Source of the DNA: Pristiophorus japonicus
Lineage: Eukaryota
DNA: 64,000 nt
Direction: 5' to 3'
Assembly: GCF_044704955.1 (NCBI RefSeq)
Contig: NC_091987.1
Coordinates: 117,304,001-117,368,000, forward strand
A model generated the notes under the pieces. It had not been told where the DNA came from and did no database searches. It saw only the letters and a list, made by a program, of their open reading frames with translations. A program made the position numbers and the translations under genes. This document shows positions 24,421 to 57,900 of this stretch, in pieces (position 1 is the stretch's first letter; the number at the start of each line of letters is the position of its first letter).

Positions 24421-24682
24421 AAGCTGCTGAGTGTACTCTCAGGCCTCCAGCGGTGTCCAGACCTCTCCCCAGCGGCGTCCAGGTGTTCACACAGATCGGG
24501 GCGGCCCACCCAACACGCCTGTCAGGTAAGGCCAAGCTCACCCGCCCAATTGCTCGCGCTTCTTACTGAGGGGCGGGGCTCAGTGGCGCACGCGCACTTT
24601 TAGAAACTTTTTAAATTGGGGTAACTTTTATAATCTAATATTGATTTACAGCTTAGACTTTTAACAACTCTTAGAAACTTTT

Positions 24683-25356
24683 TAGAAACATAGAAAATAG
24701 GTACAGGAGTAGGCCATTCGGCCCTTCGAGCCTGCACCACCATTCAACAAGATCATGGCTGATCACCCACCCCAGCACCTCCCCCTCTACACCCCCCGAC
24801 CCCCCCCAGCCGCAAGGACCACATCTAACTCCCTCCCGAACACATCCAATGAACTGGCATCAACAACTCTCCGCAGCAGGGAACCCCACAGGCCAACAAC
24901 TCCCCGAGTGAAGAAGTCTCTCCCAATCACAGCCCCAAACAGCCCACCTCCCCATCCCAATCCCCACCCCCCACCCCCCCGGCTCCGGACCCACCCAACA
25001 CCGGGAACACTGCCCCCCGCACCCAACCCGCCCCATCCCGTCAGAATCCTTCCCAAATGCCGAACACCCCCGGATGTTGAGCCCCCAGCCCCGGCCACCC
25101 CGGAGCCACGCCCCCGCGACGCCAACCACACCACATCCACCAACCGCCATCTGCGCAGTCAACCCGTCCACCCCACTCTGAACACTCCCCGCATCGAGGC
25201 ACAGAGCCCCCAGGCCCGCCCCTCCAACACACTTCGCCCCCCAGACCTCCGCTGCAATGTGACCCCTCCTGTCCCTCGCCCTGGGTTTCTCCGCCCCCCA
25301 CCTCCACCACTCTCCCCTCCATCCCCCGCCCCCGTCTCTCCTCAACTTCCCTCTGT
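24683..25356 (-). mobile_element. Internally deleted CR1 with massive A-to-G hypermutation (3' end joined to the start of ORF2 near 25048)
   Basis: Aligns to the reverse complement of 48280-48650 and to 53641-53950; differences are overwhelmingly T-to-C on the + strand. Confidence 0.9.
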
Positions 25357-25717
25357 ACGCAATCAATAAGGAAGGCAAATGGTATGTTGTCCTTTACTGT
25401 AAGGGGTTGGAATACAAGAGTAAGGAAGTCCCGCTACAACCGTATAGGGCCTTGTTGAGACCACACCTGGAGTACTGTGCACAGTTTTGGTCTCCTTATC
25501 CAAGGAAGGAAATACCTGCCTCGGAGACGGTGCAACAAAGGTTCACAAGATTGATTCCTGGGATGAGGGCTGTCTTATGATAAGATAGCGTGTAGAATGG
25601 GCCTATACGCTCTCAAGTTCAGAATAATGAGGTGTGATCTCATTGAAACATACAAGGTTCTGAAGGGGATTGCAGGTTAGATGCTAAGAGGCTGTTTCCC
25701 TTGGCGGGAGTGTCTAG
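25357..25717 (+). mobile_element. CR1 RT fragment in inverted orientation, adjoining the hypermutated copy
   Basis: AAGGCAAATGGTATGTTG..AGACCACACCTGGAGTACTGTGCACAGTTTTGGTCTCC..GATCTCATTGAAACATACAAG. Confidence 0.85.
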
Positions 25718-25911
25718 TTTTAAAACTTTTTAACAACCCTTAGAAACTCTTGCAATAAATTGGGAATTTTTTTCAACTTTTAACTTTTAAAATAACTTTG
25801 GAAGTCACCTTCCTAATGCCTGCCCCCAACCTAGCCTCGGGCCATTTACCATCAATGGCGCTACCCGGCGCCGAGCTCGCAGCCAACACTTCGCAGTAGG
25901 CAATTAGGCTT

Positions 25912-28900
25912 ATAGAGCTGTGCCTGGTCTCCAGTTGTCTTGGACCCCCTTGCCACTGGACCAAGAATGTGTTCAGCTAAGCCTGTGTGGTTGCGGGTGT
26001 GCAGCGGCCACCCCACGTTAAAAGAACTCACGCACAGGCATCTTCCACTTCGTCAGTATGAAGTTCGGGACCTGGAATGTCAGGACCCTCATGGACAATC
26101 CTAACAGCAACAGGCCGGAACGCCGCACCGCCTTAGTTGCCCAGGAACTCAGCCATTTTGACATTGATGTCGCCGCCCTAAGCGAGATCCGGCGGGCAGG
26201 GGAAGGCCAATTGAAGGAACATGGTGGAGGTTACACCTTCTTCTGGAAAGGGAAACCAGAGGCAGAACGCCGCCTTCATGGAGTCGGCTTTGCCGTCAAG
26301 AATGAGCTGGTTGACCGCCTCAAAGACTCCCCCTGTGGGGTTAACGAATGCCTCATGACTCTCCGTATCACTCTATCTCGGAACCAATGTGCCACAGTCA
26401 TCAGTGCGTACGCCCCTACACTCGATGCAACGGATGAGACCAAAGAGGGTTTTTATTCCAATCTCGAGACATCTTTTTCCCGAGTCCCCACGGGCGACAA
26501 ATCGATCCTCCTGGGAGATTTTAATGCCAGGGTTGGCAAAGACACAGCCCTCTGGGGAGGCGTGATTGGCAGAGAGGGGGTAAGGAAAGCCAACTCCAGC
26601 GGTACCCTACTCCTGACAAAATGTTGAGAACATGAACTCCTCATCACCAACACCCTGTTCCGCCAGAAGGACAAATACAAGGCATCGTGGCAACACCCTC
26701 GCTCTATACACTGGCACCTGCTTGACTATGTCATCGTCCAAGCCAGGGATCACAAGGATGTACGCATCACCCGTACCATGACAGGAGCTGACGACTGCTG
26801 GACGGACCACCGCCTAATCCGATCCATCATCAATATAAACATCGTCCCAAAGCAGAGGGGATAGCAGAAGCAGTTCCACAAAAAGTTAATGCCGGGGCAC
26901 TTAAAGACCCAGCTAAGAGAGCCCTATACAGCCAGCGCCTCACAGCCAATCTGGCGTGCCTTGATGACCCTGAGATGCTGAATCCCCATAGCGCTTGGTC
27001 TGCCCTCCAGGCCTCTATAACTAGTGCCTGTGAAGAGACACTTGGTCACTCAACCAGAAACTACCAGTTCTGGTTTGATGAAAATGATCAGGAGATCGAA
27101 GAACTAATAGATCGCAAGCGCAAAGCATTTCTGAGCCTCAAGCAACAGCGCAACGCGGGAGCTGCAAAACAACATTACAGATGGCTCAAGGCTCAGGTCC
27201 AACAAAAAACTTGGGACCTAAAGAACAGGTGGTGGATGGAGATACAACAACTGGTCGACAGCCATGATCTGCGAGGATTCTTCGCTGCAGTCAAGGCCAC
27301 CTATGGTCCAAACTCCCAAGGACCCACCCCACTCCTGGCCAAGAACAGGGAAACACTCATCAAGGACACCGAGGCTGTCAGGACCCGATGGAAGGAGCAC
27401 TTTGAAGATCTCCTCAATCGAGACTCTGCCTTTGACTCGAGTGTTCTCGATTCCATCCCGTAGAATGCGACCCGCCACCAACTCAGTGAAACTCCAACGT
27501 TGCACGAGGTAGGCAAAGCCATACAACAGTTTAAGAAAAACAAGGCTATGGGTGCGGATGGAATCCCTGCTGAGGCGCTAAAATTTTGCGGAGAGGCACT
27601 GTTGGCGTGGATACATGACCTCATCTCTCTCATCTGGAGGGAGGAGAGCATGCCGGGAGATCTGAGAGAAGCAGTGATTGTAATCATTTTTAAAAAGGGG
27701 GACAAGTCCGACTGCGGCAACTACAGGGGAATCTCCCTGCTTTCAGAATCTCCCTGATTGAGTTCTTCTCCCTGTGGCCGAGGAGCTCCTCCCGGAATCA
27801 CAATGCGGATTTCGTCCCCTATGGGGCACAACAGACATGATCTTTGCAGCGCGCCAGTTGCAGGAAAACTGCAGGGAGCAGCGCCAGCCCTTATACATGG
27901 CCTTTTTAGATCTTACAAAGGTCTTTGACATGGTCAACCATGAGGGTCTATGGAGCATCCTCCTCTGTTTCGGATGCCCCCAAAAGTTTGTCAACATCCT
28001 TCGCCTGCTTCTCGATGACATGCAGGCTGTGAGCCTTACCAAGGGATCCATTACAGACCCAATCCATGTCCAGATCGGGGTCAAACAGGGCTGCATTATC
28101 GCTCCAACCCTCTTCTCAATCTTCCTTGCCGCCATGCTCCACCTCACAATCAACAAGCTCCCCGCTGGAGTGGAATTAAACTACAGAACCAGTGGGAAGC
28201 TGTTTAACCTATGCCGCCTCCAGGCCAGGTCCAAGATCACCCCAACCTCTGACGTTGACCTGCAGTATGTGGACGACGTATGCGTCTGTGCACATTCAGA
28301 GGCTGAACTCCAGGATATAGTCAATGTATTCACTGAGGCAAATAAAAGCATGAGCCTTACGCTTAACATCCGTAAGACAAAGGTCCTCCACCAGCCTGTC
28401 ACCGCCGCACAGCACTGCCCTCCAATCATCAAGATCCACGGCGCGGCCCTGGACAACGTGGACCATTTCCCATATCTCGGGAGCCTCTTATCAACAAAGA
28501 CAGACATTGAGCGGAGATTCAGCATCGCCTCCAGTATGCCAGCGCAGCCTCCGGCCATCTGACGAAAAGAGTGTTTGAAGACCAGGCCCTCAAATCTACC
28601 ACCAAACTCATGGTCTACAGGGCTGTAGTAATACCCGCCCTCCTGTATGGATCTGAGGCATGGACGATGTATAGAAGGCACCTCAAGTCACTGAAGATAT
28701 ACCACCAACGATGTCTCTGCAAGATCCTGCAAATCCCCTGGGAGGACAGGCGCACCAACATCAGTGTCTTCGACCAGGCTAACATCCCCAGGATTGAAGC
28801 ACTGACCACACTCGATCAGCTTCGCTGGGCAGGCCACATAGTACACATCCCAGATACGAAACTCCCTAAGCAAATGCTTTATGCAGAGCTCCTTCATGGT

Positions 28901-35734: not shown

Positions 35735-36426
35735 GGGGGTGAACTTGCCCTGAGCCCCGATTGGGGGTGGTAACCTGCTGGGGCCGGGACTTCCTGCACC
35801 TGGGGCAGAAGTCCTGCCCCCACCGCTGAATTGGGCAGGTCCCGGGGTGCTACTGGGGCGAGGACTGCAGTGCCTCGCAGATGTTCCACGTAGCACTGAT
35901 GCGCTTCAACACCCCTCTCCTAGGCCATCAGGGCAGCATCGCACCGGACCTGCAACCCGGCACCCAACACAGCAAGCTGGGATGCACGATGCTCGGGAGC
36001 TGACCCGAGAGTTGGCAAACCAATTAAGATGCCAGTGCGGGGATCTGGCGACCTCCCCTTTAACTTCCACCTCGTGAGCGGATGTCGGCCAGCGTTGTGA
36101 CCTGTGACGCCGCCGTTGATATCCGATCATGCCAGCTTCGTGGGCTGCGGGGCAATTTCCCCCACGGTGTTGAAAAGGGTAGGTGCGCGGTGATGAGGGG
36201 TTGCCGTGCATAATGATGAGATCATCACTGGTTGTGCAGCGGCCCGGGGCACTACCCATGGAGTGTGGTACTGCTATGGCAGTGCCTCTGCAAACTCCCG
36301 AGAGCCAGTAGGAACCTCCCCCTCCCCTCCCTATACAACCCCCCGGGGGGAAATTTCTCTTCCGCCCCGTTAGTGCATCCCCCAGAAGCGCTAACGGGCC
36401 TCTAAAAAAGTGGCAATTTCGCGCCC
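35735..36426. mobile_element. Non-autonomous TIR element (Harbinger-like MITE), related to 38194-38967
   Basis: TIRs GGGGGTGAACTTGCCC and GGCAATTTCGCGCCC; internal similarity to the second copy (GAGCTGACCCGAGA.TTGGCAA). Confidence 0.7.
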
Positions 36427-38193: not shown

Positions 38194-38967
38194 GAGGGCG
38201 AAATTGCCCTGCGCCCTGATTGGGAGCGGTAATCATCTTGGGCCGGACTTTCTGCACTCGCGCAGATGTCCTGCCCCCGCCGCTGAAATGATCTTTCTGC
38301 CCCTCAAAGGAAGCAGAGCGCAATCTCACGCGCACCACTTCGTTTTGGGGTGGTTACTGGAGCAATACTGAAACGGTGAATCAAGTGTCACGCGGATGCT
38401 CCATGTAGCGCTGATGAGCTTCAACGCCCTTCCCCTTCACTTAAAGGGAGGGCCGCTGTGCACTCTGCAAGGCCTCTAATGGCCTCCATTAGGCCACCAG
38501 GGCACTGTGCTGGGCTGCACACTGGCGGCACGGGCCAGACTAGGGCCACCATCATAGAGCTGACCCGAGAATTGGCAATCAAAAAAAGATGGCGGCCCGG
38601 GGCACTGGCGCCCTCCCCTTTAAGGTGCGTCCCAAGAGCGGATATCAGCCAGCTTCATGAACGGGGAAGCAGGCATTGACATCCGCTCACACCAGCCTCA
38701 TGGCCCATGGTGCAATTTCCCCCGTTAAGGGGTTGGCACGGGGTGCTGAGAGGTTGCCGCACACAGCGATGATGTAATCGGCAGTTACCCTGCGGCCCGG
38801 GGCGCTAACTGCAGGATGCGGTGCTGCCATGGCAGCGCCTCTGCAAACTCCCAGCCAATTTCCCAGGAACCGGTAACGCCACCCTTCCCCAGGTGAAAAT
38901 TCTCCTCTGCCCTGTTATTGCCTCTGGGGGCGCTAATGGGGCTATAAAAAGGGGCAATTTCACCCCC
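38194..38967. mobile_element. Non-autonomous Harbinger-like MITE with 3-bp TSD TGT
   Basis: TIRs GAGGGCGAAATTGCCC and GGGGCAATTTCACCCCC, both flanked by TGT. Confidence 0.8.
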
Positions 38968-47811: not shown

Positions 47812-48651
47812 ATGCATGGCAGATGCAGTATAATGTGGATAAATGTGAAGTTATCCATTTTGTGGCAAAAACACGAAGGCAGAATATTATCTGAATGGCG
47901 GCAGATTAGGAAAAGGGGAGGTGCAACGAGACCTAGGTGTCATGGTTCATCAGTCATTGAAAGTTGGCATGCAGGTACAGCAGGCAGTGAAGAAGGCAAA
48001 TGGCATGTTGGCCTTCTTAGCTAGGGGATTTGAGTATAGGAACAGGGAGGTCTTACTGCAATTGTACAGAGCCTTGGTGAGGCCTCACCTGGAATATTGT
48101 GTTCAGTTTTGGTCTCCTAATCTGAGGAAAGATGTTCTTGCTATTGAGCGAGTGCAGCGAAGGTTCACCAGAATGATTCCAGGGATGGCTGGACTGACAT
48201 ATGAGGTGAGACTGGATCAACTGGGCCTTTATACACTGGAGTTTAGAAGGATGAGAGGGGATCTCTTAGAAACGTCTAAGATTCTGACGGGACGGGACAG
48301 GTTAGATGCGGGAAGAAGGTTCCCGATGTTGGAGAAGTCCAGAACCAGGGAACACAGTCTTAGGATAAGGGGTAGGCCATTTAGGACTGAGATGAGAAGA
48401 AACTTCTTCACGCAGAGAGTTGTTAACCTGTGGAATTCCCTGCCGCAGAGAGTTGTTGATGCCAGTTCATTGGATATATTCAAGAGGGAGTTAGATATGG
48501 CCTTACGGCTAAAGGGATCAAGGGTATGGAGAGAAAGCAGGAAAGGGGTACTGAGGTGAATGATCAGCCATGATCTTATTGAATGGCGGTGCAGGCTCGA
48601 AGGGCCGAATGACCTACTCCTGCACCTATTTTATATGTTTCTATGTTTCTA
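47812..48651 (+). mobile_element. CR1 copy B (young 3' fragment) nested in copy A
   Basis: ORF 47921-48559 (QRDLGVMVHQSLKV..FFTQRVV); ATGTTTCT tail. Confidence 0.9.
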
Positions 48652-49968
48652 AGAGGCTTCAGGGAACAAAGACAGGATAAATGAGTGAGCAAGAAAATGG
48701 CAAATGGAATATAATGTGGAGAAATGTGAAGGGATCCACTTTTGTAGAAAAAATAGAAAAGCAGAGCATTTTGTAAATGTTGAGAGATTGGGAAATGTTG
48801 GTGTTCAGAGGGACCTGGGTGTCCTTGTACACGAATCACTGAAAGTTAACATGCAGGTACAGCAAGCAATTAAGAAAGCAAATGGTATATTGGCCTTTAT
48901 TAGAAGTGGATTTGAGCACAAGAGTAAAGACGTCTTCCTACAATTAATTAGGGCCCTGGTGAGACTGCATACCTGGAGTATTGTGTACAGTTTTGGACTT
49001 ACCTAAGGAAGGATATACTTGCTATAGAGAGAGTGCAATGAAGGTTCACTAGAGTGATTCCTGGGATGGGGGACTGTCCTATGAGGAGAGATTGAGTAGA
49101 TTAGGCCTATATTCTCTAGAGTTTAGAAGAATGAGAGGTGATCTCATTGAAACATACAAGGAGATATTTCACAACTCTCAAGAAAAATATATTCCTGCGA
49201 GGAGGAAAGGGTGTAAGGGAAAAGATAGCCATTGTGGCTAACTAAAGAGATAAAGGACGGTATCCAATTAAAAACAAGGGCATACAAAGTGGCCAAAACT
49301 AGTGGGAGTACAGAAGACTGGGAAACTTTAAAAAGCCCCAAAAAAATGATTAAGAAAAGGAAGATAGACTATAAAAGCAAACTAGCACAAAATATTGTTA
49401 TGTATGGAGAAAGAGTCAGACTGAACACTGTAAGCTCAAAGTAAAATGTGACCTTAGTCTTTTATTGCAGGTTTCCAGAATGCCTCTCCAACCTGTGAGG
49501 CCTCCTTATATACCTATGCTCCCAAGGGATTATGGGATCCCTTGGGACTCCAGGGGGTGAGCCCCCTGGTGGCTGTACAGAGTAAATACAAGTTAACATA
49601 GATAACAACACTCGCCCCGCAAAGTCAATAGTGTAACTATTTACAATGTGAGTCGATCTGGGGCCCTTCTTGCCCTGGTTGATCATCTCGGTGTGAAAGC
49701 TGGTATTGTTGAATCATTTGTTGGGCCCTCGCTGGGCTGCCTGGTGTGTTGGGTCCTGCTGGGCTGCTGTGGAAGATGGGTTCTGCTTCGTAGTCAACTG
49801 TGGTGCCGGTTGCCATTGGTGTGTATGTTGGGGCATCAAAAAAGGTAGGGTCCAAGGTGGGTTGCTCAGGGTAGTTTGTAAATCTGAGTTTGATTTGGTC
49901 CAAGTGTTTCCGGTGAATGAGTCCATTTGAAAGTTTGACCCAAAACACCCTGCTCCCCTCTTTGTCCA

Positions 49969-50330: not shown

Positions 50331-50996
50331 GGGAAGCCACTAGGGACCTTGTCCATAATTCAATACAAATACAGAGTCATTGATTTCAATCTCGTGTGAC
50401 ACATTTGCGCTATCATGGTATGTAATTTGTTGAAGCCACCTGCTCTCTACCTGTTCATGCAGATCAGGGTGAACTAACGAGAGCCTTGTCTTAAGTGCTC
50501 TTTTCATGAGCAGTTCAGCAGATGGGATCCCAGTGAGCGAGTGGGGTCTCGTGCGGTAGCTAAACAGGACTTGGGATATGCGAGTCTGCAGCGAGCCTTC
50601 AGTTACCCTCTTAAAGCCTTGCTTGATGGTTTGTACTGCTCTCTCTGATTGACCATTGGATGCTGGTTTAAACGGGGCAGATGTGACATGTTTGATCCCG
50701 TTACGGGTCATGATTTCTTTGAATTCAGCACTGGTGAAACATGGCACGTTGTCGCTCACCAGGACATCGGGTAAGCCGTGAGTGGCAATCATGGCCTGCA
50801 GGCTTTCAGTAGTGGCAGCGGACATGCTAGCCGACATTATCTCACATTCAATCCACTTGGAATACGCATCTACAATCACTAGGAACATTTTACCCAAGAA
50901 CGGGCATAGAAACATAGAAACATAGAAAATAGGTGCAGGAGTAGGCCATTCGGCCCTTCTAGCCTGCACCGCCATTCAATGGCTGAACATTCAACT

Positions 50997-53903
50997 TCAG
51001 TACCCCATTTCTGCTTTCTCGCCATACCCCTTGATCCCCCTAGTAGTAAGGACCTCATCTAACTCCTTTTTGAATATATTTAGTGAATTGGCCTCAACAA
51101 CTTTCTGTGGTAGAGAATTCCACAGGTTCACCACTCTCTGGGTGAAGAAGTTCCTCCGCATCTCGGTCCTAAATGGCTTACCCCTTATCCTTAGACTGTG
51201 ACCTCTGGTTCTGGACTTCCCCAACATTGGGAACATTCTTCCTGCATCTAACCTGTCTAACCCCGTCAGAATTTTAAATGTTTCTATGAGGTCCCCTCTC
51301 ATTCTTCTGAACTCCAGTGAATACAAGCCCAGTTGATCCAGTCTTTCTTGATAGGTCAGTCCCGCCATCCCGGGAATCAGTCTGGTGAACCTTCGCTGCA
51401 CTCCCTCAATAGCAAGAATGTCCTTCCTCAGGTTAGGAGACCAAAACTGTACACAATACTCCAGGTGTGGCCTCAACAAGGCCCTGTACAACTGTAGCAA
51501 CACCTCCCTGCCCCTGTACTCAAATCCCCTTGCTATGAAGGCCAACATGCCATTTGCTTTCTTAACCGCCTGCTGCACCTGCATGCCAACCTTCAATGAC
51601 TGATGTACCATGACACCCAGGTCTCTTTGCACCTCCCCTTTTCCTAATCTGTCACCATTCAGATAATAGTCTGTCTCTCTGTTTTTACCACCTAAGTGGA
51701 TAACCTCACATTTATCCACATTATACTTCATCTGCCATGCATTTGCCCTCTCACCTAACCTATCCAAGTCGCTCTGCAGCCTCACAGCATCCTCCACGCA
51801 GCTCACACTGCCACCCAACTTAGTGTCATCCGCAAATTTGGAGATACTACATTTAATCCCCTCATCTAAATCATTAATGTACAGTGTAAACAGCTGGGGC
51901 CCCAGCACAGAACCTTGCGGTACCCCACTAGTCACTGCCTGCCATTCTGAAAAGTACCCATTTACTCCTACTCTTTGCTTCCTGTCTGACAACCAGTTCT
52001 CAATCCATGTCAGTACACTACCCCCAATCCCATGTGCTCTAACTTTGCACATCAATCTCTTGTGTGGGACCTTGTCGAACGTCTTCTGAAAATCCAAATA
52101 TACCACATCAACTGGTTCTCCCTTATCCACTCTACTGGAAACATCCTCAAAAAATTCCAGAAGATTTGTCAAGCATGATTTCCCTTTCACAAATCCATGC
52201 TGACTTGGACCTATCATGTCACCTCTTTCCAAATGCACTGCTATGACATCCTTAATAATTGATTCCATCATTTTACCCACTACCGACGTCAGGCTGACCG
52301 GTCTATAATTCCCTGTTTTCTCTCTCCCTCCTTTTTTAAAAAGTGGGGTTACATTGGCTACCCTCCACTCCATAGGAACTGATCCAGAGTCAATGGAATG
52401 TTGGAAAATGACTGTCAACGCATCCACTATTTCCAAGGCCACCTCCGTAAGTACTCTGGGATGCAGTCCATCAGGCCCTGGGGATTTATCGGCCTTCAAT
52501 CCCATCAATTTCCCCAACACAATTTCCCGGCTAATAAGGATTTCCCTCAGTTCCTCCTCCTTACTAGACCCCCCGACCCCTTTTATAACCGGAAGGTTGT
52601 TCGTGTCCTCCTTCGTGAATACCGAACCAAAGTACTTGTTCAATTGGTCCGCCATTTCTTTGTTCCCCGTTATGACTTCCCCTGATTCTGACTGCTGAGG
52701 ACCTACGTTTGTCTTTACTAACCTTTTTCTCTTTACATATCTATAGAAACTTTTGCAATCCGTCTTAATGTTCCCTGCAAGCTTCTTCTCATACTCCATT
52801 TTCCCTGCCCTAATTAAACCCTTTGTCCTCCTCTGCTGAGTTCTAAATTTCTCCCAGTCCCCAGGTTCGCTGCTATTTCTGGCCAATTTGTATGCCACTT
52901 CCTTGGCTTTAATACTATCCCTGATTTCCCTTGATAGCCACGGTTGAGCCACCTTCCCTTTTTTATTTTTATGCCAGACAGGAATGTACAATTGTTGTAG
53001 TTCATCCATGCGGTCTCTAAATGTCTGCCATTGCCCATCCACAGTCAACCCCTTAAGTATCATTCGCCAATCCATCCCAGCCAATTCACGTCTCATACCT
53101 TCAAAGTTAGCCTTCTTTAAGTTCTGGACCATGGTCTCTGAATTAACTGTTTCATTCTCCATCTCAATGCAGAATTCCACCATATTATGGTCACTCTTCC
53201 CCAAGGGGCCTCGCACAACGAGATTGCTAATTAATCCTCTCTCATTACATAACACCCAGTCTAAGATGGCCTCCCCCCTAGTTGGTTCCTCGACATATTG
53301 GTCTAAAAAACCATCCCTTATGCACTCCAGAAAATCCTCCTCCACCGTATTGCTTCCAGTTTGGTTAGCCCAATCTATGTGCATATTAAAGTCACCCATT
53401 ATAACTGGTGCACCTTTATTGCAGGCACCCCTAATTTCCTGTTTGATGCCCTCCCCAACATCACTACTACTGTTTGGAGGTCTGTACACAACTCCCACTA
53501 ACGTTTTTTGCCCTTTGGTGTTCTGCAGCTCTACCCATATAGATTCCACATCATCCAAGCTAATGTCCTTCCTAACTATTGCCTTAATCTCCTCCTTAAC
53601 CAGCAATGCTACCCCACCTCCTTTTCCTTTTATTCTATCCTTCCTGAATGTTGAATACCCCTGGATGTTGAGTTCCCAGCCCTGATCATCCTGGAGCCAC
53701 GTCTCCGTAATCCCAATCACATCATATTTGTTAACATCTATTTGCACAGTTAATTCATCCACCTTATTGCGGATACTCCTTGCATTAAGACACAAAGCCT
53801 TTAGGCTTGTTTTTTTAACACCCTCTGTCCTTTTAGAATTTTGCTGTACAATGGCCCTTTTTGTTCTTTGCCTTGGGTTTCTCTGCCCTCCACTTTTCCT
53901 CAT
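50997..53903 (-). CDS. CR1 ORF2: APE endonuclease plus reverse transcriptase (968 aa)
   Basis: LNARSI, ITETWL, VYRPP, MGDFN, SDHN; RT motifs SQHGF, GVPQGSVLGP, KFADD. Confidence 0.96.
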   Translation of the reverse strand: MRKSGGQRNPRQRTKRAIVQQNSKRTEGVKKTSLKALCLNARSIRNKVDELTVQIDVNKYDVIGITETWLQDDQGWELNIQGYSTFRKDRIKGKGGGVALLVKEEIKAIVRKDISLDDVESIWVELQNTKGQKTLVGVVYRPPNSSSDVGEGIKQEIRGACNKGAPVIMGDFNMHIDWANQTGSNTVEEDFLECIRDGFLDQYVEEPTRGEAILDWVLCNERGLISNLVVRGPLGKSDHNMVEFCIEMENETVNSETMVQNLKKANFEGMRRELAGMDWRMILKGLTVDGQWQTFRDRMDELQQLYIPVWHKNKKGKVAQPWLSREIRDSIKAKEVAYKLARNSSEPGDWEKFRTQQRRTKGLIRAGKMEYEKKLAGNIKTDCKSFYRYVKRKRLVKTNVGPQQSESGEVITGNKEMADQLNKYFGSVFTKEDTNNLPVIKGVGGSSKEEELREILISREIVLGKLMGLKADKSPGPDGLHPRVLTEVALEIVDALTVIFQHSIDSGSVPMEWRVANVTPLFKKGGREKTGNYRPVSLTSVVGKMMESIIKDVIAVHLERGDMIGPSQHGFVKGKSCLTNLLEFFEDVSSRVDKGEPVDVVYLDFQKTFDKVPHKRLMCKVRAHGIGGSVLTWIENWLSDRKQRVGVNGYFSEWQAVTSGVPQGSVLGPQLFTLYINDLDEGIKCSISKFADDTKLGGSVSCVEDAVRLQSDLDRLGERANAWQMKYNVDKCEVIHLGGKNRETDYYLNGDRLGKGEVQRDLGVMVHQSLKVGMQVQQAVKKANGMLAFIARGFEYRGREVLLQLYRALLRPHLEYCVQFWSPNLRKDILAIEGVQRRFTRLIPGMAGLTYQERLDQLGLYSLEFRRMRGDLIETFKILTGLDRLDAGRMFPMLGKSRTRGHSLRIRGKPFRTEMRRNFFTQRVVNLWNSLPQKVVEANSLNIFKKELDEVLTTRGIKGYGEKAEMGY

Positions 53904-53980
53904 CTCCTTTCTGTCTTTTGTTTTTGCCTCCTTTTTGTTTCCCTCTATCTCCCTGCATTGGTTCCCATCCCCCTGCCATG

Positions 53981-54928
53981 TTAGTTTAACTCCTCCCCAA
54001 CAGCACTAGCAAACACTCCCCTGAGGACATTGGTTCCGATTCTGCCCAGGTGCAGACTGTCCGGATTGTACTGGTCCCACCTCCCCCAGAACCGGTTCCA
54101 ATGCCCCAGGAATTTGAATCCCTCCCTGCTGCACCATTGCTCAAGCCACGTATTCATCTGAGCTATCCTGTGATTCCTACTCTGACTAGCACGTGGCACT
54201 AATAGCAATCCTGAGATTACTACTTTTGAGGTCCTACTTTTTAATTTAGCTCCTAGCTCCTTAAATTCATTTCGTAGGAACTCATCCCTTTTTTTACCTA
54301 TGTCATTGGTACCAACGTGCACCACGACAACTGGCTGTTCTCCCTCCCTTTTTAGAATGTCCTGCACCCGCTCCGAGACATCCTTGACCCTTGCACCAGG
54401 GAGGCAACATACCATCCTGGAGTCTCGGTTGCGGCCGCAGAAACGCCTATCTATTCCCCTTACAATTGAATCCCCTATCACTATCGCTCGCCCACTCTTT
54501 TTCCTGCCCTCCTGTGCAACAGAGCCAGCCACGGTGCCATGAACTTGGCTGCTGCTGCCCGCTCCTGATGAGTCATCTCCCTCAACAGCACTCAAAGCAG
54601 TGTATCTGTTTTGCAATGGGATGACCACAGGGGACCCCTGCACTACCTTCCTTGCACTACTCTTCCTGCTGGTCTTCCATTCCCTCGCTGGCTGTGGACC
54701 CTTCTCCTGCGGTAAGACCAACTCGCTATACGTGATACTCACGTCATTCTCAGCATCGTGGATGCTCCAGAGTGAATCCACCTTCAGCTCCAACTCCGCA
54801 ACGCGGACCGTCAATAGCCGGAGGTGGACACACTTCCCGCACATGTAGTCGTCAGGGACACTGGTGTTGTCCCCGTGTTCCCACATGGTACAGGAGGAGC
54901 ATATCACGTGACCGAGCTGTCCTGCCAT
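53981..54928 (-). CDS. CR1 ORF1: zinc finger/coiled coil plus SGNH esterase-like domain (315 aa)
   Basis: CSSC..CGKC; IVIGDSIVR, CLPGA, HVGTND and DSLHL blocks. Confidence 0.92.
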   Translation of the reverse strand: MAGQLGHVICSSCTMWEHGDNTSVPDDYMCGKCVHLRLLTVRVAELELKVDSLWSIHDAENDVSITYSELVLPQEKGPQPAREWKTSRKSSARKVVQGSPVVIPLQNRYTALSAVEGDDSSGAGSSSQVHGTVAGSVAQEGRKKSGRAIVIGDSIVRGIDRRFCGRNRDSRMVCCLPGARVKDVSERVQDILKREGEQPVVVVHVGTNDIGKKRDEFLRNEFKELGAKLKSRTSKVVISGLLLVPRASQSRNHRIAQMNTWLEQWCSREGFKFLGHWNRFWGRWDQYNPDSLHLGRIGTNVLRGVFASAVGEELN

Positions 54929-57900
54929 GACTTAACCCTTAGATACACTTAAATTGCCGACAACAATGTTAAAAGTTACTGACTAATAAAGAAAAAGAAA
55001 AACTACTCACCAATCAGCAGCCAATCACTTACCACGTTGGCTGTGACGTCACCTTTTGATTGACGTGTATAGTTGACGTGTACCCTAGACCACGGTTTGG
55101 AGGGCCAGGACCATAAACTTAGCGGCGCCTCCCTGGGTACATTGCTTAACTGCGAGCATGTATTACATCTGTGAATGCAGGACTCTAAGTCCGCATCGAT
55201 ACCGGGCCACCACACGTGGGATCTGGCTATTGCTTTCATCATTATGATGCCTGGGTGGGTACTGTTGATGAAGGTGTCTCTGCCCTTCTTGGGGACCACT
55301 ACTCGATTGCCCCACAGAAGGCAGTCTGCTTGTATAGACATCTCATTTTTGCGCTGCTGGAACGGCTTAATCTCTTCCTGAATTTCCACTAGGACACTGG
55401 ACCAGCTCCCGTGAAGCACACAGCTTTTGACTAGAGATAATAAGCGGTCCTGGCTTGTCCAGGTTTTGATCTGCCGTGCAGTGATGGGTGATTGCTCACT
55501 CTCAAATGCTTCCATAACCATGGTTAGATCTGCGGGCTGCGCCATTTCCACCCCCGTGGTGAGCAATGGCAGCCTACTGAGAGCATCGGCGCAGTTTTCT
55601 GTGCCTGGCCTGTGGCGGATGGCGTAGTTGCATGTGGACAACGTGAGTGCCCATCTCTGGATGCCGGCTGATGCGTTGGTATTTATCTCTTTACTCTCGG
55701 AAAACAGGGATATAAGTGGCTTATGGTCAGCATCCAATTTGAATTTTAGCCCACACAGGTATTGATGTAATTTCTTTACCCCATAGACACACGCTAACGC
55801 TTCTTTCTCAATCATGCTGTAGGTTCTCTCAGCCTTAGACAGACTCCTGGATGCATAAGCAACCAGTTGCAGTTTCCCAAAATCATTAGCTTGTTGCAAT
55901 ACACACCCGACGCCATATGACGATGCATCACATGCTAGCACCAAGCGCTTACATGGATCAGACAACACAAGCAATTTGTTTGAGCATAACAATTTTCTCG
56001 CTTTTACAAAGGCATTTTCTTGGCTTTTGCCCCAAACCCATTCGTCCCCTTTTCATAGTAAGACATGCAGTGGTTCTAACAGTGTGCTAAGACCCAGTAA
56101 GAAGTTGCCAAAGTAGTTCAAGTGTCCCAGAAACGACCGCAGCTCCATCACGTTCTCGATTGCCACCGTCTTTGCATTGGTGGGTCTGATACCATCCGCC
56201 GCAATCCTCCTTTACAAGAACTCCACTTCAGGCTCCAGGAAAATGCACTTCGAGCATTTTAATCTGAGCCCCACGTGGTTGAGTCGACTAAGAACCACCT
56301 CCAGGTTCTGCAGATGCTCAACTGTGTTCCGACCAGTGACCAAGATGTCGTCCTGGAAGACCACAGTGTGCGGAATCTACTTCAGTAAGCTTTCCATGTT
56401 TCTCTGGAATATCACTGCCGCTGATCAGATGCCAAATGGGCATCTGTTATAAACAAAAAGACCTTTGTGCATGTTGATGCAGGTGAAAGCCTTCGATGAT
56501 TCCTCCAGTTCGTGCATCATGTAGGCTGAAGTCAGATCCAGCTTCGTGAACGTCTTTCCTCCCGCCAGCGTTGCAAAGAGGTCGTCGGCCTTTGGTAGTG
56601 CGTATTGGTCCTGCAGGGAGAAACGATTGATAGTTACTTTGTAATCGCCACAGATTCTGACAGTGCCATCTCCCTTGAGGACTGGGACGATAGGACTGGC
56701 CCACTCGTTGAACTCGATCGGGGAAATGATGCCCTCTCTTTGCAGCCGGTCTAGCTCGATCTCTACCCTTTCTCTCATCATGTACGGTACTGCTCTCGCC
56801 ATGGGATGGATGGGTCGCGCCCCCGGAATTAGATGGATCTGCACTTTTGCTCCTTGGAATTTCCCGATACCTGGTTCGAACAGCAAAGAAAATTTGTTTA
56901 AGACGTGGGCACACGAAGTGTCATCAGCGGGCAATAGCGCTTAGACGTCGTCCCAGTTCCAGCGTATCTTTCCAAGCCCCAGCGTATCTTTCCCAGCCAG
57001 CTCCTGCCAAGCAGCACGGGACGATTGGCCAGTACCACCCAGAGTGGTAGCTTGTGCACCGCTCCATCGTAGGAGACCTTTACGGTAGCACTGCCGGTAA
57101 CAGGAATCAGTTCTTTTGTGTAAGTTCTTAATTTCGTGCGAACTGGAGTTAAGACTGACCTTGAGGCCTTGTTGCACACAATCTTTCAAAAGTCTTTTTG
57201 CTCATGATGGACTGGCTCGTGCCAGTGTCCAGCTCCATTGACACTGGGAGTCCATTTAGTTCAACATTCAGCATTATCAGGGGACAATTCGTGGTGAATG
57301 TGTGCACCCCATGTACCTTTGCCTCCTTCGTCTGAGGCTCTGGTTCGTCGTGATCCTCCGTGGATCTGTCCTCCTCTGCAACTTGGTGGTTTGCAGGTTT
57401 TACAGGATTTGCAGCTCGCCTGCACATGCTTTGGAGGTGTCCCATTGTTCCACAGCACTTTCCAACGTACCCTTTGAATCGGCATGAATGGAAACGATGA
57501 TCACCCCCGCAGCGCCAACACGGTGTTAATGGCCTTGCATTCATCACCCTTGATGGTGGACTCTGAGACATCTGCGGACGTGCAGCTGCAGGTATATGTG
57601 ACCTGCCCTGTACGTCACGATTCGAAAACAACATCACTTTATTCACAGTACGTGTAGCAGCACTTGTGTACTGAGAGATTTGTTTCGTATTGTCACTGGT
57701 GGCAATGAACACCTGGGCTATCGCTATGACCTTACTCAAGGTTGGGGTCTCTACAGTCAAAAGTTTGCGAAGTATGGTTTCGTGGCCAGTGCCAAGTATG
57801 AAAAAGTCTCTGAGCATGTGCTCCAAATGTCCTTCAAATTTGCAATGTCCTGCAAGGCGTCTTAACTCGGCGACATAACTCACCACTTCCTGGCCTTCAG

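Follow-up and report, generated by a model that had tools for sequence, protein, structure and literature searches.

A CR1-derived, SVA-like retroelement family of Pristiophorus japonicus with the probable imprint of A-to-I RNA editing in its founder and in later copies

The C-rich stretch at 24683-25356 of the window (the whole 64,000-nucleotide stretch of Pristiophorus japonicus DNA analysed here) belongs to a non-autonomous retroelement family that is SVA-like in layout and is built on an internally deleted CR1. From the sequence comparisons below it is very probable that ADAR edited the RNA that founded this family and later edited separate transcripts of a donor copy, and that the CR1 reverse transcriptase (RT) fixed inosine as G. 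The initial annotation had proposed that an ADAR-edited CR1 RNA was retrotransposed to give a single edited insertion at this site, and that many genomic copies would instead point to inheritance from an amplified subfamily. The mechanism is supported by spectrum, strand, context and codon blindness, but its placement at this insertion was wrong and the many-copies test came out against it, since all 133 A>G changes of the window copy (24683-25356) are present in the family consensus and the flagged interval was therefore edited before amplification. The element is also longer than had been annotated, with a true span of 24683-25717, and it continues not into the variable number tandem repeat (VNTR) but into a segment C (25356-25717) that had been missed. 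This adjoining piece is the stronger evidence, as it brings an unedited likely donor, an inverted repeat and differently edited daughters. The features of the window are as follows.

24600..24682, no strand: left host site, an AT-rich multi-copy repeat; empty-site joint 24678/25717 in run X3 contigs
24683..24747, minus strand: 3' end of CR1 without edits, made up of a stem-loop and a microsatellite tail of (TTTCTATG) type; 0/13 parent A edited, hairpin -23.7 kcal/mol
24748..25048, minus strand: edited segment A, CR1 ORF2 end and 3' UTR; A>G 58/98, other changes 8
25046..25355, minus strand: edited segment B, CR1 ORF2 frame start (leader and first endonuclease strands); A>G 89/134, other changes 22
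25356..25717, minus strand: segment C, flank of L032 (likely donor) gained by 5' transduction and consisting of antisense CR1 RT sequence; relative to L032, A>G 10/94 and T>C 0/94
25718..25800, no strand: right host site; empty-site joint 24678/25717 in run X3 contigs
48270..48655, plus strand: comparison copy, a CR1 3' end without edits from the parent subfamily nearest to the element; 40 places at 95-100%, 20 of the 39 others fetched
50907..54931, minus strand: near-intact full-length CR1-type LINE; ORF1 of 316 aa with PF13472 esterase, ORF2 of 1002 aa with PF03372 and PF00078

The tail at 24683 lies on the minus strand, so that T>C in the window corresponds to A>G on the RNA strand. Segments B and A are joined with a 3-nt overlap across a deletion of about 2.4 kb (size taken from the window parent, 53637 to 51272), and the segment B parent has an open frame with a PF03372 match. 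CR1-type LINEs have an ORF1 with an esterase, an ORF2 with endonuclease and RT and a 3' microsatellite tail, and in CR1/L2-type LINEs the 3' end serves as the recognition signal for the RT; the stem-loop and tail at 24683..24747 are likely to be the signal read by the CR1 RT. We take the parents to be CR1 from their domain layout and microsatellite tail. The matches to PF13472, PF03372 and PF00078 were located within 51000-54931 of the window, the 1002-aa ORF2 of the 50907-54931 LINE is open and stop-free with both endonuclease and RT, and such an element would be the kind of autonomous partner able to mobilise the family. Inspection of the window copy flanks gave no clear target-site duplication, and none that was consistent was found across the family loci. 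The plus strand at 25920-26500 holds the start of another LINE, presumably similar to RTE, and pieces of this same repeat flank L002, L003 and L008.

The replacement of T by C on the plus strand, originally counted by hand over a short alignment, was borne out when window 24668-25050 was compared with the reverse complement of 48270-48670 (T>C 54/104, A>G 0/92, other substitutions 22), and the same bias was recovered in the second segment, 25046-25356, against 53620-53980 (T>C 82/127, A>G 9/55). For the full substitution table, the family consensus was compared with a parent consensus, from 31 family and 21 parent copies for segment A and from 24 family and 6 parent copies for segment B; the latter parent consensus rests on 6 copies only, 83-100% alike, because a genome search for segment B parents gave 0 candidates and they were taken from fetched flanks. 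The direction is read as parent to family because both parent pieces retain an open frame. In RNA sense the table is as asymmetric as had been expected, with A>G at 147/231, T>C at 6/151, G>A at 2/210 and C>T at 6/109, and with 30 non-A>G substitutions in all. The changes are confined to the part upstream of the last 72 nt, where 147/218 A (67%) are G in the family; inside the last 72 nt 0/13 parent A are changed. An APOBEC-edited retroelement was considered and rejected, the sense-strand G>A clusters being absent.

The founder changes depend on the 5' neighbour in the order U>A>C>G (U 29/30, A 61/78, C 26/40, G 31/66), and adenosines with a 5' G, which had been predicted to be spared, are the least edited (31/66 against 116/148 of the others, p=1e-5). 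The 3' neighbour has a flat profile (G 47/66, A 55/76, C 18/28, U 27/44), and the changes are blind to codon position (63/87, 48/67 and 32/53 at positions 1, 2 and 3). Passages of PMC3113232 describe an ADAR preference for U and A as 5' neighbour, with C and G less preferred, a weaker 3' preference, and a ceiling of 50-60% editing for one reaction. With 67% overall and 47% at 5'-G adenosines, the founder is set above that quoted ceiling, which calls for either several rounds of editing or the selection of a molecule that was already saturated.

Other parts of the element are unaltered. Compared with homologues, the 175-bp repeat piece shows no bias (A>G 6 with T>C 6 in one comparison, A>G 2 with T>C 2 in the other); it is unedited, as are the consensus of the VNTR units and the 3' hairpin, which has a predicted fold of -23.7 kcal/mol in the family. 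From parent to family the GC content rises from 46% to 67% and the number of CpG from 14 to 39, in agreement with the earlier suggestion of a route to GC- and CpG-rich sequence. The family consensus has 4 G-quadruplex-type motifs and the parent 0. A duplex of the edited core with the antisense parent stays strong through G-U pairs (-1233 against -1440 kcal/mol), and an escape from pairing is therefore unsupported by energy alone.

That the C-rich form is an assembly error can be set aside, as a genome search with the window stretch gave 40 places at 90-100% from 1849 candidates, and the form also occurs in contigs of runs X5 and X6 (another study) and X7 (another organism label), the X7 record of 268 nt over 24977-25242 having 3 letters differing. 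The deletion-junction pattern gave 468 exact genome matches and the VNTR-junction pattern 437, each with 0 for the reversed control; with exact-match rates of 13/58 and 19/54, respectively, in copies found otherwise, the copy number is estimated at about 2,100 or about 1,240 (1,200-2,100), both samples being biased toward well-kept copies. The unedited deletion junction gave 0 exact genome matches, and its 48 one-mismatch matches were all family-type junctions. In all of 100 full-core copies, 56-62% of the unmasked parent A read G; no intermediates were found among these 100 or among 100 listed of the 468 junction matches, and nested, progressively edited core subfamilies were not seen among the 100 full-core copies. 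After removal of re-fetched loci and of the segmental duplicates L017, L021 and L130, 114 distinct copies were analysed, and these diverge from the consensus by 2.2% outside CpG. Since amplification, CpG sites have decayed by 6-8%, while C>T and G>A changes elsewhere stand at 1.6-1.8%, a difference that would fit germline methylation of the copies.

The common layout on the RNA strand is VNTR, 175-bp repeat piece, segment B, segment A, hairpin and tail, the tail being an octamer microsatellite. The VNTR units are of 37/38 bp and number 1 to 105 per copy, L147 having about 105 (3.9 kb), and every examined 5' end lies inside the VNTR or further in. The 175-bp piece is 75-80% like window 38220-38370 and 35761-35834. 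Nine extended loci have no sequence in common 5' of the VNTR, and neither L126 nor L032 gave an Rfam match at gathering score that would indicate a small-RNA head (tRNA, 7SL, 5S); a master copy outside those examined may still carry a head 5' of its VNTR. Ongoing editing in the main family was also considered, as rare variants are skewed (A>G 101/10142 against T>C 69/15132), yet it was not counted because unedited paralogues have a comparable twofold skew. In L132, the VNTR units differ from the unit consensus by A>G 18/64 and T>C 0/40, with 1 A>G in the core, possibly through a further editing event or through the spread of one edited unit by tandem duplication. L093 and L134 have 573 bp of 5' flank in common at 97.9%, but not the 3' flank, and are without clear editing; they are a possible second 5'-transduction pair.

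The junction with segment C was found at nine loci, which form a 5'-transduction group that includes the window copy. One of these, L032 on contig C9 (G000:C9, about 201.9696-201.9717 Mb), is flanked left and right by the host repeat, of which about 3-4 nt are duplicated, and its segment C piece is unedited relative to 25 paralogues of the host repeat; the non-donor loci are at unrelated sites and carry 22 to 539 nt of segment C, and 28/34 donor-specific states are common to the daughters. Because it has the host repeat on both sides, is unedited and shares its states with daughters elsewhere, L032 is the likely source. Its core differs from those of the daughters at several family-polymorphic sites and shares 10/17 non-consensus states with L016, 11 Mb off on contig C9, which suggests later gene conversion and leaves room for an unseen sister donor in place of L032. 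The cores of L017 and L021, on the same contig (the four loci lie at 202-217 Mb), take part in this sharing of 10/17 states, again pointing to gene conversion.

At L032, segment C is one arm of an inverted CR1 pair of about 700 bp, the arms of which are 71% alike. The pair has a predicted fold of -757 kcal/mol against about -400 in 5 shuffles, with 76% of the donor arm in long-range pairs. A CpG island with CCAAT- and GC-box-like motifs (G000:C9:201964000-201965000), possibly a promoter, precedes the donor by about 6.5 kb on the RNA strand. The host repeat itself extends over at least 4 kb in at least 25 copies about 95% alike (L036-L060, on contigs C20, C23, C25 and small contigs); each copy bears the same tail-to-tail inverted CR1 pair, and these pairs are a possible standing source of dsRNA.

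In the daughters this arm carries a second layer of changes. Only sites at which donor and outgroup agree were counted, with L159 (sister of L155) and L156 (too short) dropped, and the six remaining daughters differ from the donor by A>G 123/549 and T>C 4/567 (p=6e-36), while the seven daughters known earlier together give A>G 130/569 and T>C 4/590, and the 25 unedited paralogues A>G 56/3555 and T>C 29/3557. A held-out daughter, L210, with 64 nt of segment C only, gave a weak result in the same comparison (A>G 3/16, T>C 0/20). ADARs favour G as 3' neighbour. The daughter changes follow the 5' neighbour (U 36/125, A 50/152, C 35/175, G 9/102), with 5' G avoided (9/102 against 121/452) and 3' G favoured (44/130 against 86/424, p=0.002); these p-values are optimistic because site counts recur across daughters. 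By predicted structure, A:C mismatches are edited in 13/19 observations (5/5 sites, few in number), A-U pairs in 104/440 and loops in 6/56; taken as a whole, A in pairs (104/435) and A outside pairs (25/119) have similar rates. Hot spots of the daughters lie at segment C offsets 58, 74, 75, 142, 254 and 261. The core of these same daughter molecules gained A>G at 5/525 (1%), against 22% in the hairpin arm.

Five daughters have 59 shared sites with nine informative patterns. Six site patterns (8 sites) are common to 4 or 5 of the five, L003 and L004 are sisters, and gene conversion is indicated in the family, all of which would fit a history in which editing by ADAR was limited to the founder and a single intermediate, and the daughters came to differ by inheritance, recombination or gene conversion; such a history is nonetheless unlikely, given that 11 sites are private to one of the five, that 21 of the 36 pattern pairs are incompatible with one tree, that A>G totals in segment C range from 10/94 to 31/102, and that the changes remain almost only A>G. 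Nor were the changes copied from the other arm, because an A-U pair is broken by 104 of them. In the window copy, each of the 10 edits in segment C is also present in one sister or more, and none of these is proven private.

The reading in which separate donor transcripts were edited by ADAR also fits better than a different deaminase route, by ADAD1/2, by ADAT or, during integration, by ADAR on an RNA:DNA hybrid. PF02137 exons, of one subfamily or several, are present at six loci, a point in favour of ADAR and of such a route alike, but the context matches the ADAR preferences given in passages of PMC3113232, and deamination of A in first-strand cDNA would give sense-strand T>C, which is at background in founder and daughters (6/151 and 4/567); we hold it improbable. 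A little less credit still is given to error of the RT or second-strand polymerase under a nucleotide-pool imbalance, placing G for A without a deaminase. This too would be strand-specific and tied to retrotransposition, and runs of A are heavily altered (5' A 61/78); however, the changes end at the boundaries of CR1-complementary sequence, sparing the 175-bp piece and the last 72 nt, they differ in rate, at 22% and 1%, between hairpin arm and core of the same molecule, and 5'-G avoidance and A:C preference would, in our reasoning, be unexpected. A gradual drift of the subfamily, gene conversion biased toward GC, or selection favouring a G-rich RNA, to which the G-quadruplex-type motifs of the family lend weight, is scarcely credible with T>C, which a GC bias would raise along with A>G, at 6/151, with founder and parent separated by 30 non-A>G differences only and with intermediates lacking among the copies inspected.

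The course of events favoured here, editing by ADAR of the founder and later of donor transcripts, would begin with a CR1 that had lost about 2.4 kb of ORF2 and lay behind a VNTR and the 175-bp repeat piece, as the copies now do. Its transcript may have paired with antisense CR1 RNA and been edited, possibly in more than one round, at the 147/218 A outside the last 72 nt. The edited founder, with its 3' end kept, reached an estimated 1,200-2,100 sites, presumably copied in trans by CR1 machinery, each arrival bringing a 700-bp, 67% GC, CpG-rich block. One 5'-truncated copy appears to have landed directly downstream of the inverted CR1 pair at L032, where read-through transcripts, if made, would fold into a 700-bp hairpin; separate molecules, differently changed, probably by ADAR, were then retroposed with part of the arm, and the window copy would be one of these L032 daughters. 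Reverse transcription reads inosine as G (PMC526178). Evidence that tells against this course is that human ADAR1 and ADAR2 left L1 RNA unedited in culture (PMC5224506, PMC8677026).

No further clearly edited family was found among 1207 scored of 2036 non-family 300-bp tiles from the fetched loci, and five of the seven most skewed tiles (ten were shown below p=0.012) were segment C daughters. Read on the antisense strand, an RTE-like LINE piece at L079:4500-4800 differs by A>G 17/66 and T>C 4/75, which may be a subfamily difference. The minus strand at L152:1756-7231 holds a further non-LTR element, which we take to resemble Tx1 and whose reading frames are gag-like, endonuclease and RT.

The nearest parallel is the G-to-A editing by APOBEC that became fixed in endogenous retroviruses (ERVs). 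As described in parts of PMC4866542 and PMC2873906, the edited LTR retrotransposons and ERVs likewise carry clustered, strand-biased changes of one substitution type that were fixed at integration and detected against a subfamily consensus; those changes are G-to-A, in LTR elements and by DNA deamination, whereas the changes here are A-to-G, in a non-LTR element and in ADAR context, and, unlike those ERVs, the present family was founded by an edited copy. The screen in these sources was filtered for G-to-A, not for A-to-G. In inverted Alu pairs of human RNA (PMC526178, in part) there is a similar foldback with edited A-U pairs and A-C mismatches and with CpG creation, but there the edits are differences between cDNA and genome, whereas here they stand in genomic DNA. 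In the open literature, a search turned up no account of a non-LTR family in a germline that descends from an RNA with A-to-I editing; repeat libraries (Repbase, Dfam) or subscription papers may already contain the present one.

In structure the family resembles the bipartite non-autonomous LINEs (Bov-A, RTESINE, Vingi), which are likewise internally deleted with the 3' end kept; in the parts of PMC5786205 concerned these belong to the RTE, Ingi, Vingi and R2 clades only and consist of a 5' end and a 3' end, whereas the family here is CR1-derived and its retained 5' piece is the start of ORF2, not the 5' end. It also resembles the SVA/LAVA composites, described in passages of PMC5753468 as non-autonomous and trans-mobilised with a 35-50 bp VNTR and a GC-rich body, and including 5'-transducing groups with the 5' flank of one source locus. 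It does not share the SVA hallmarks of an Alu-like part, HERVK/SINE-R, hexamer head, poly(A) and mobilisation by L1, its VNTR is 5'-terminal in all examined copies, and its body and tail are CR1-derived and of independent origin, so that it is of similar design and not a member.

Avian retroviral proviruses with A-to-G hypermutation occur in culture. A-to-G hypermutated genomes are likewise reported for sigma virus (PMC5630973) and rubella (PMC7531822). In such cases inosine is read as G by the polymerase and passed to progeny genomes; these are viral populations or cultured cells, not a germline repeat family of a host.

Passages of a 2016 review (PMC4982230) called the role of ADAR editing in Alu subfamily evolution, and with it the writing of ADAR edits into the germline by non-LTR retrotransposition, not determined. 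Differently edited sisters from one likely source would make a heritable record of RNA editing, and as the second episode has its unedited likely source, predicted hairpin and differently edited daughters all in one assembly, the question becomes directly testable. From a founder in which two-thirds of the A had been edited came a family of at least a thousand copies, and CpG-rich and G-rich sequence can be dispersed by this route. On balance, we lean toward the view that non-LTR retroelements of this lineage are repeatedly mutated in the germline by A-to-I editing, that it made a successful SVA-like family (a mobile CpG island with a G-quadruplex-rich RNA escaping further editing) from a broken CR1 with an A-rich ORF2 remnant, and that donor and daughters together preserve, molecule by molecule, a fossil record of what ADAR did to one defined hairpin in the germline. 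Families of this kind would escape ordinary homology annotation because their identity to the parent is 60-78%, and a three-letter scan may therefore find more of them in other genomes.
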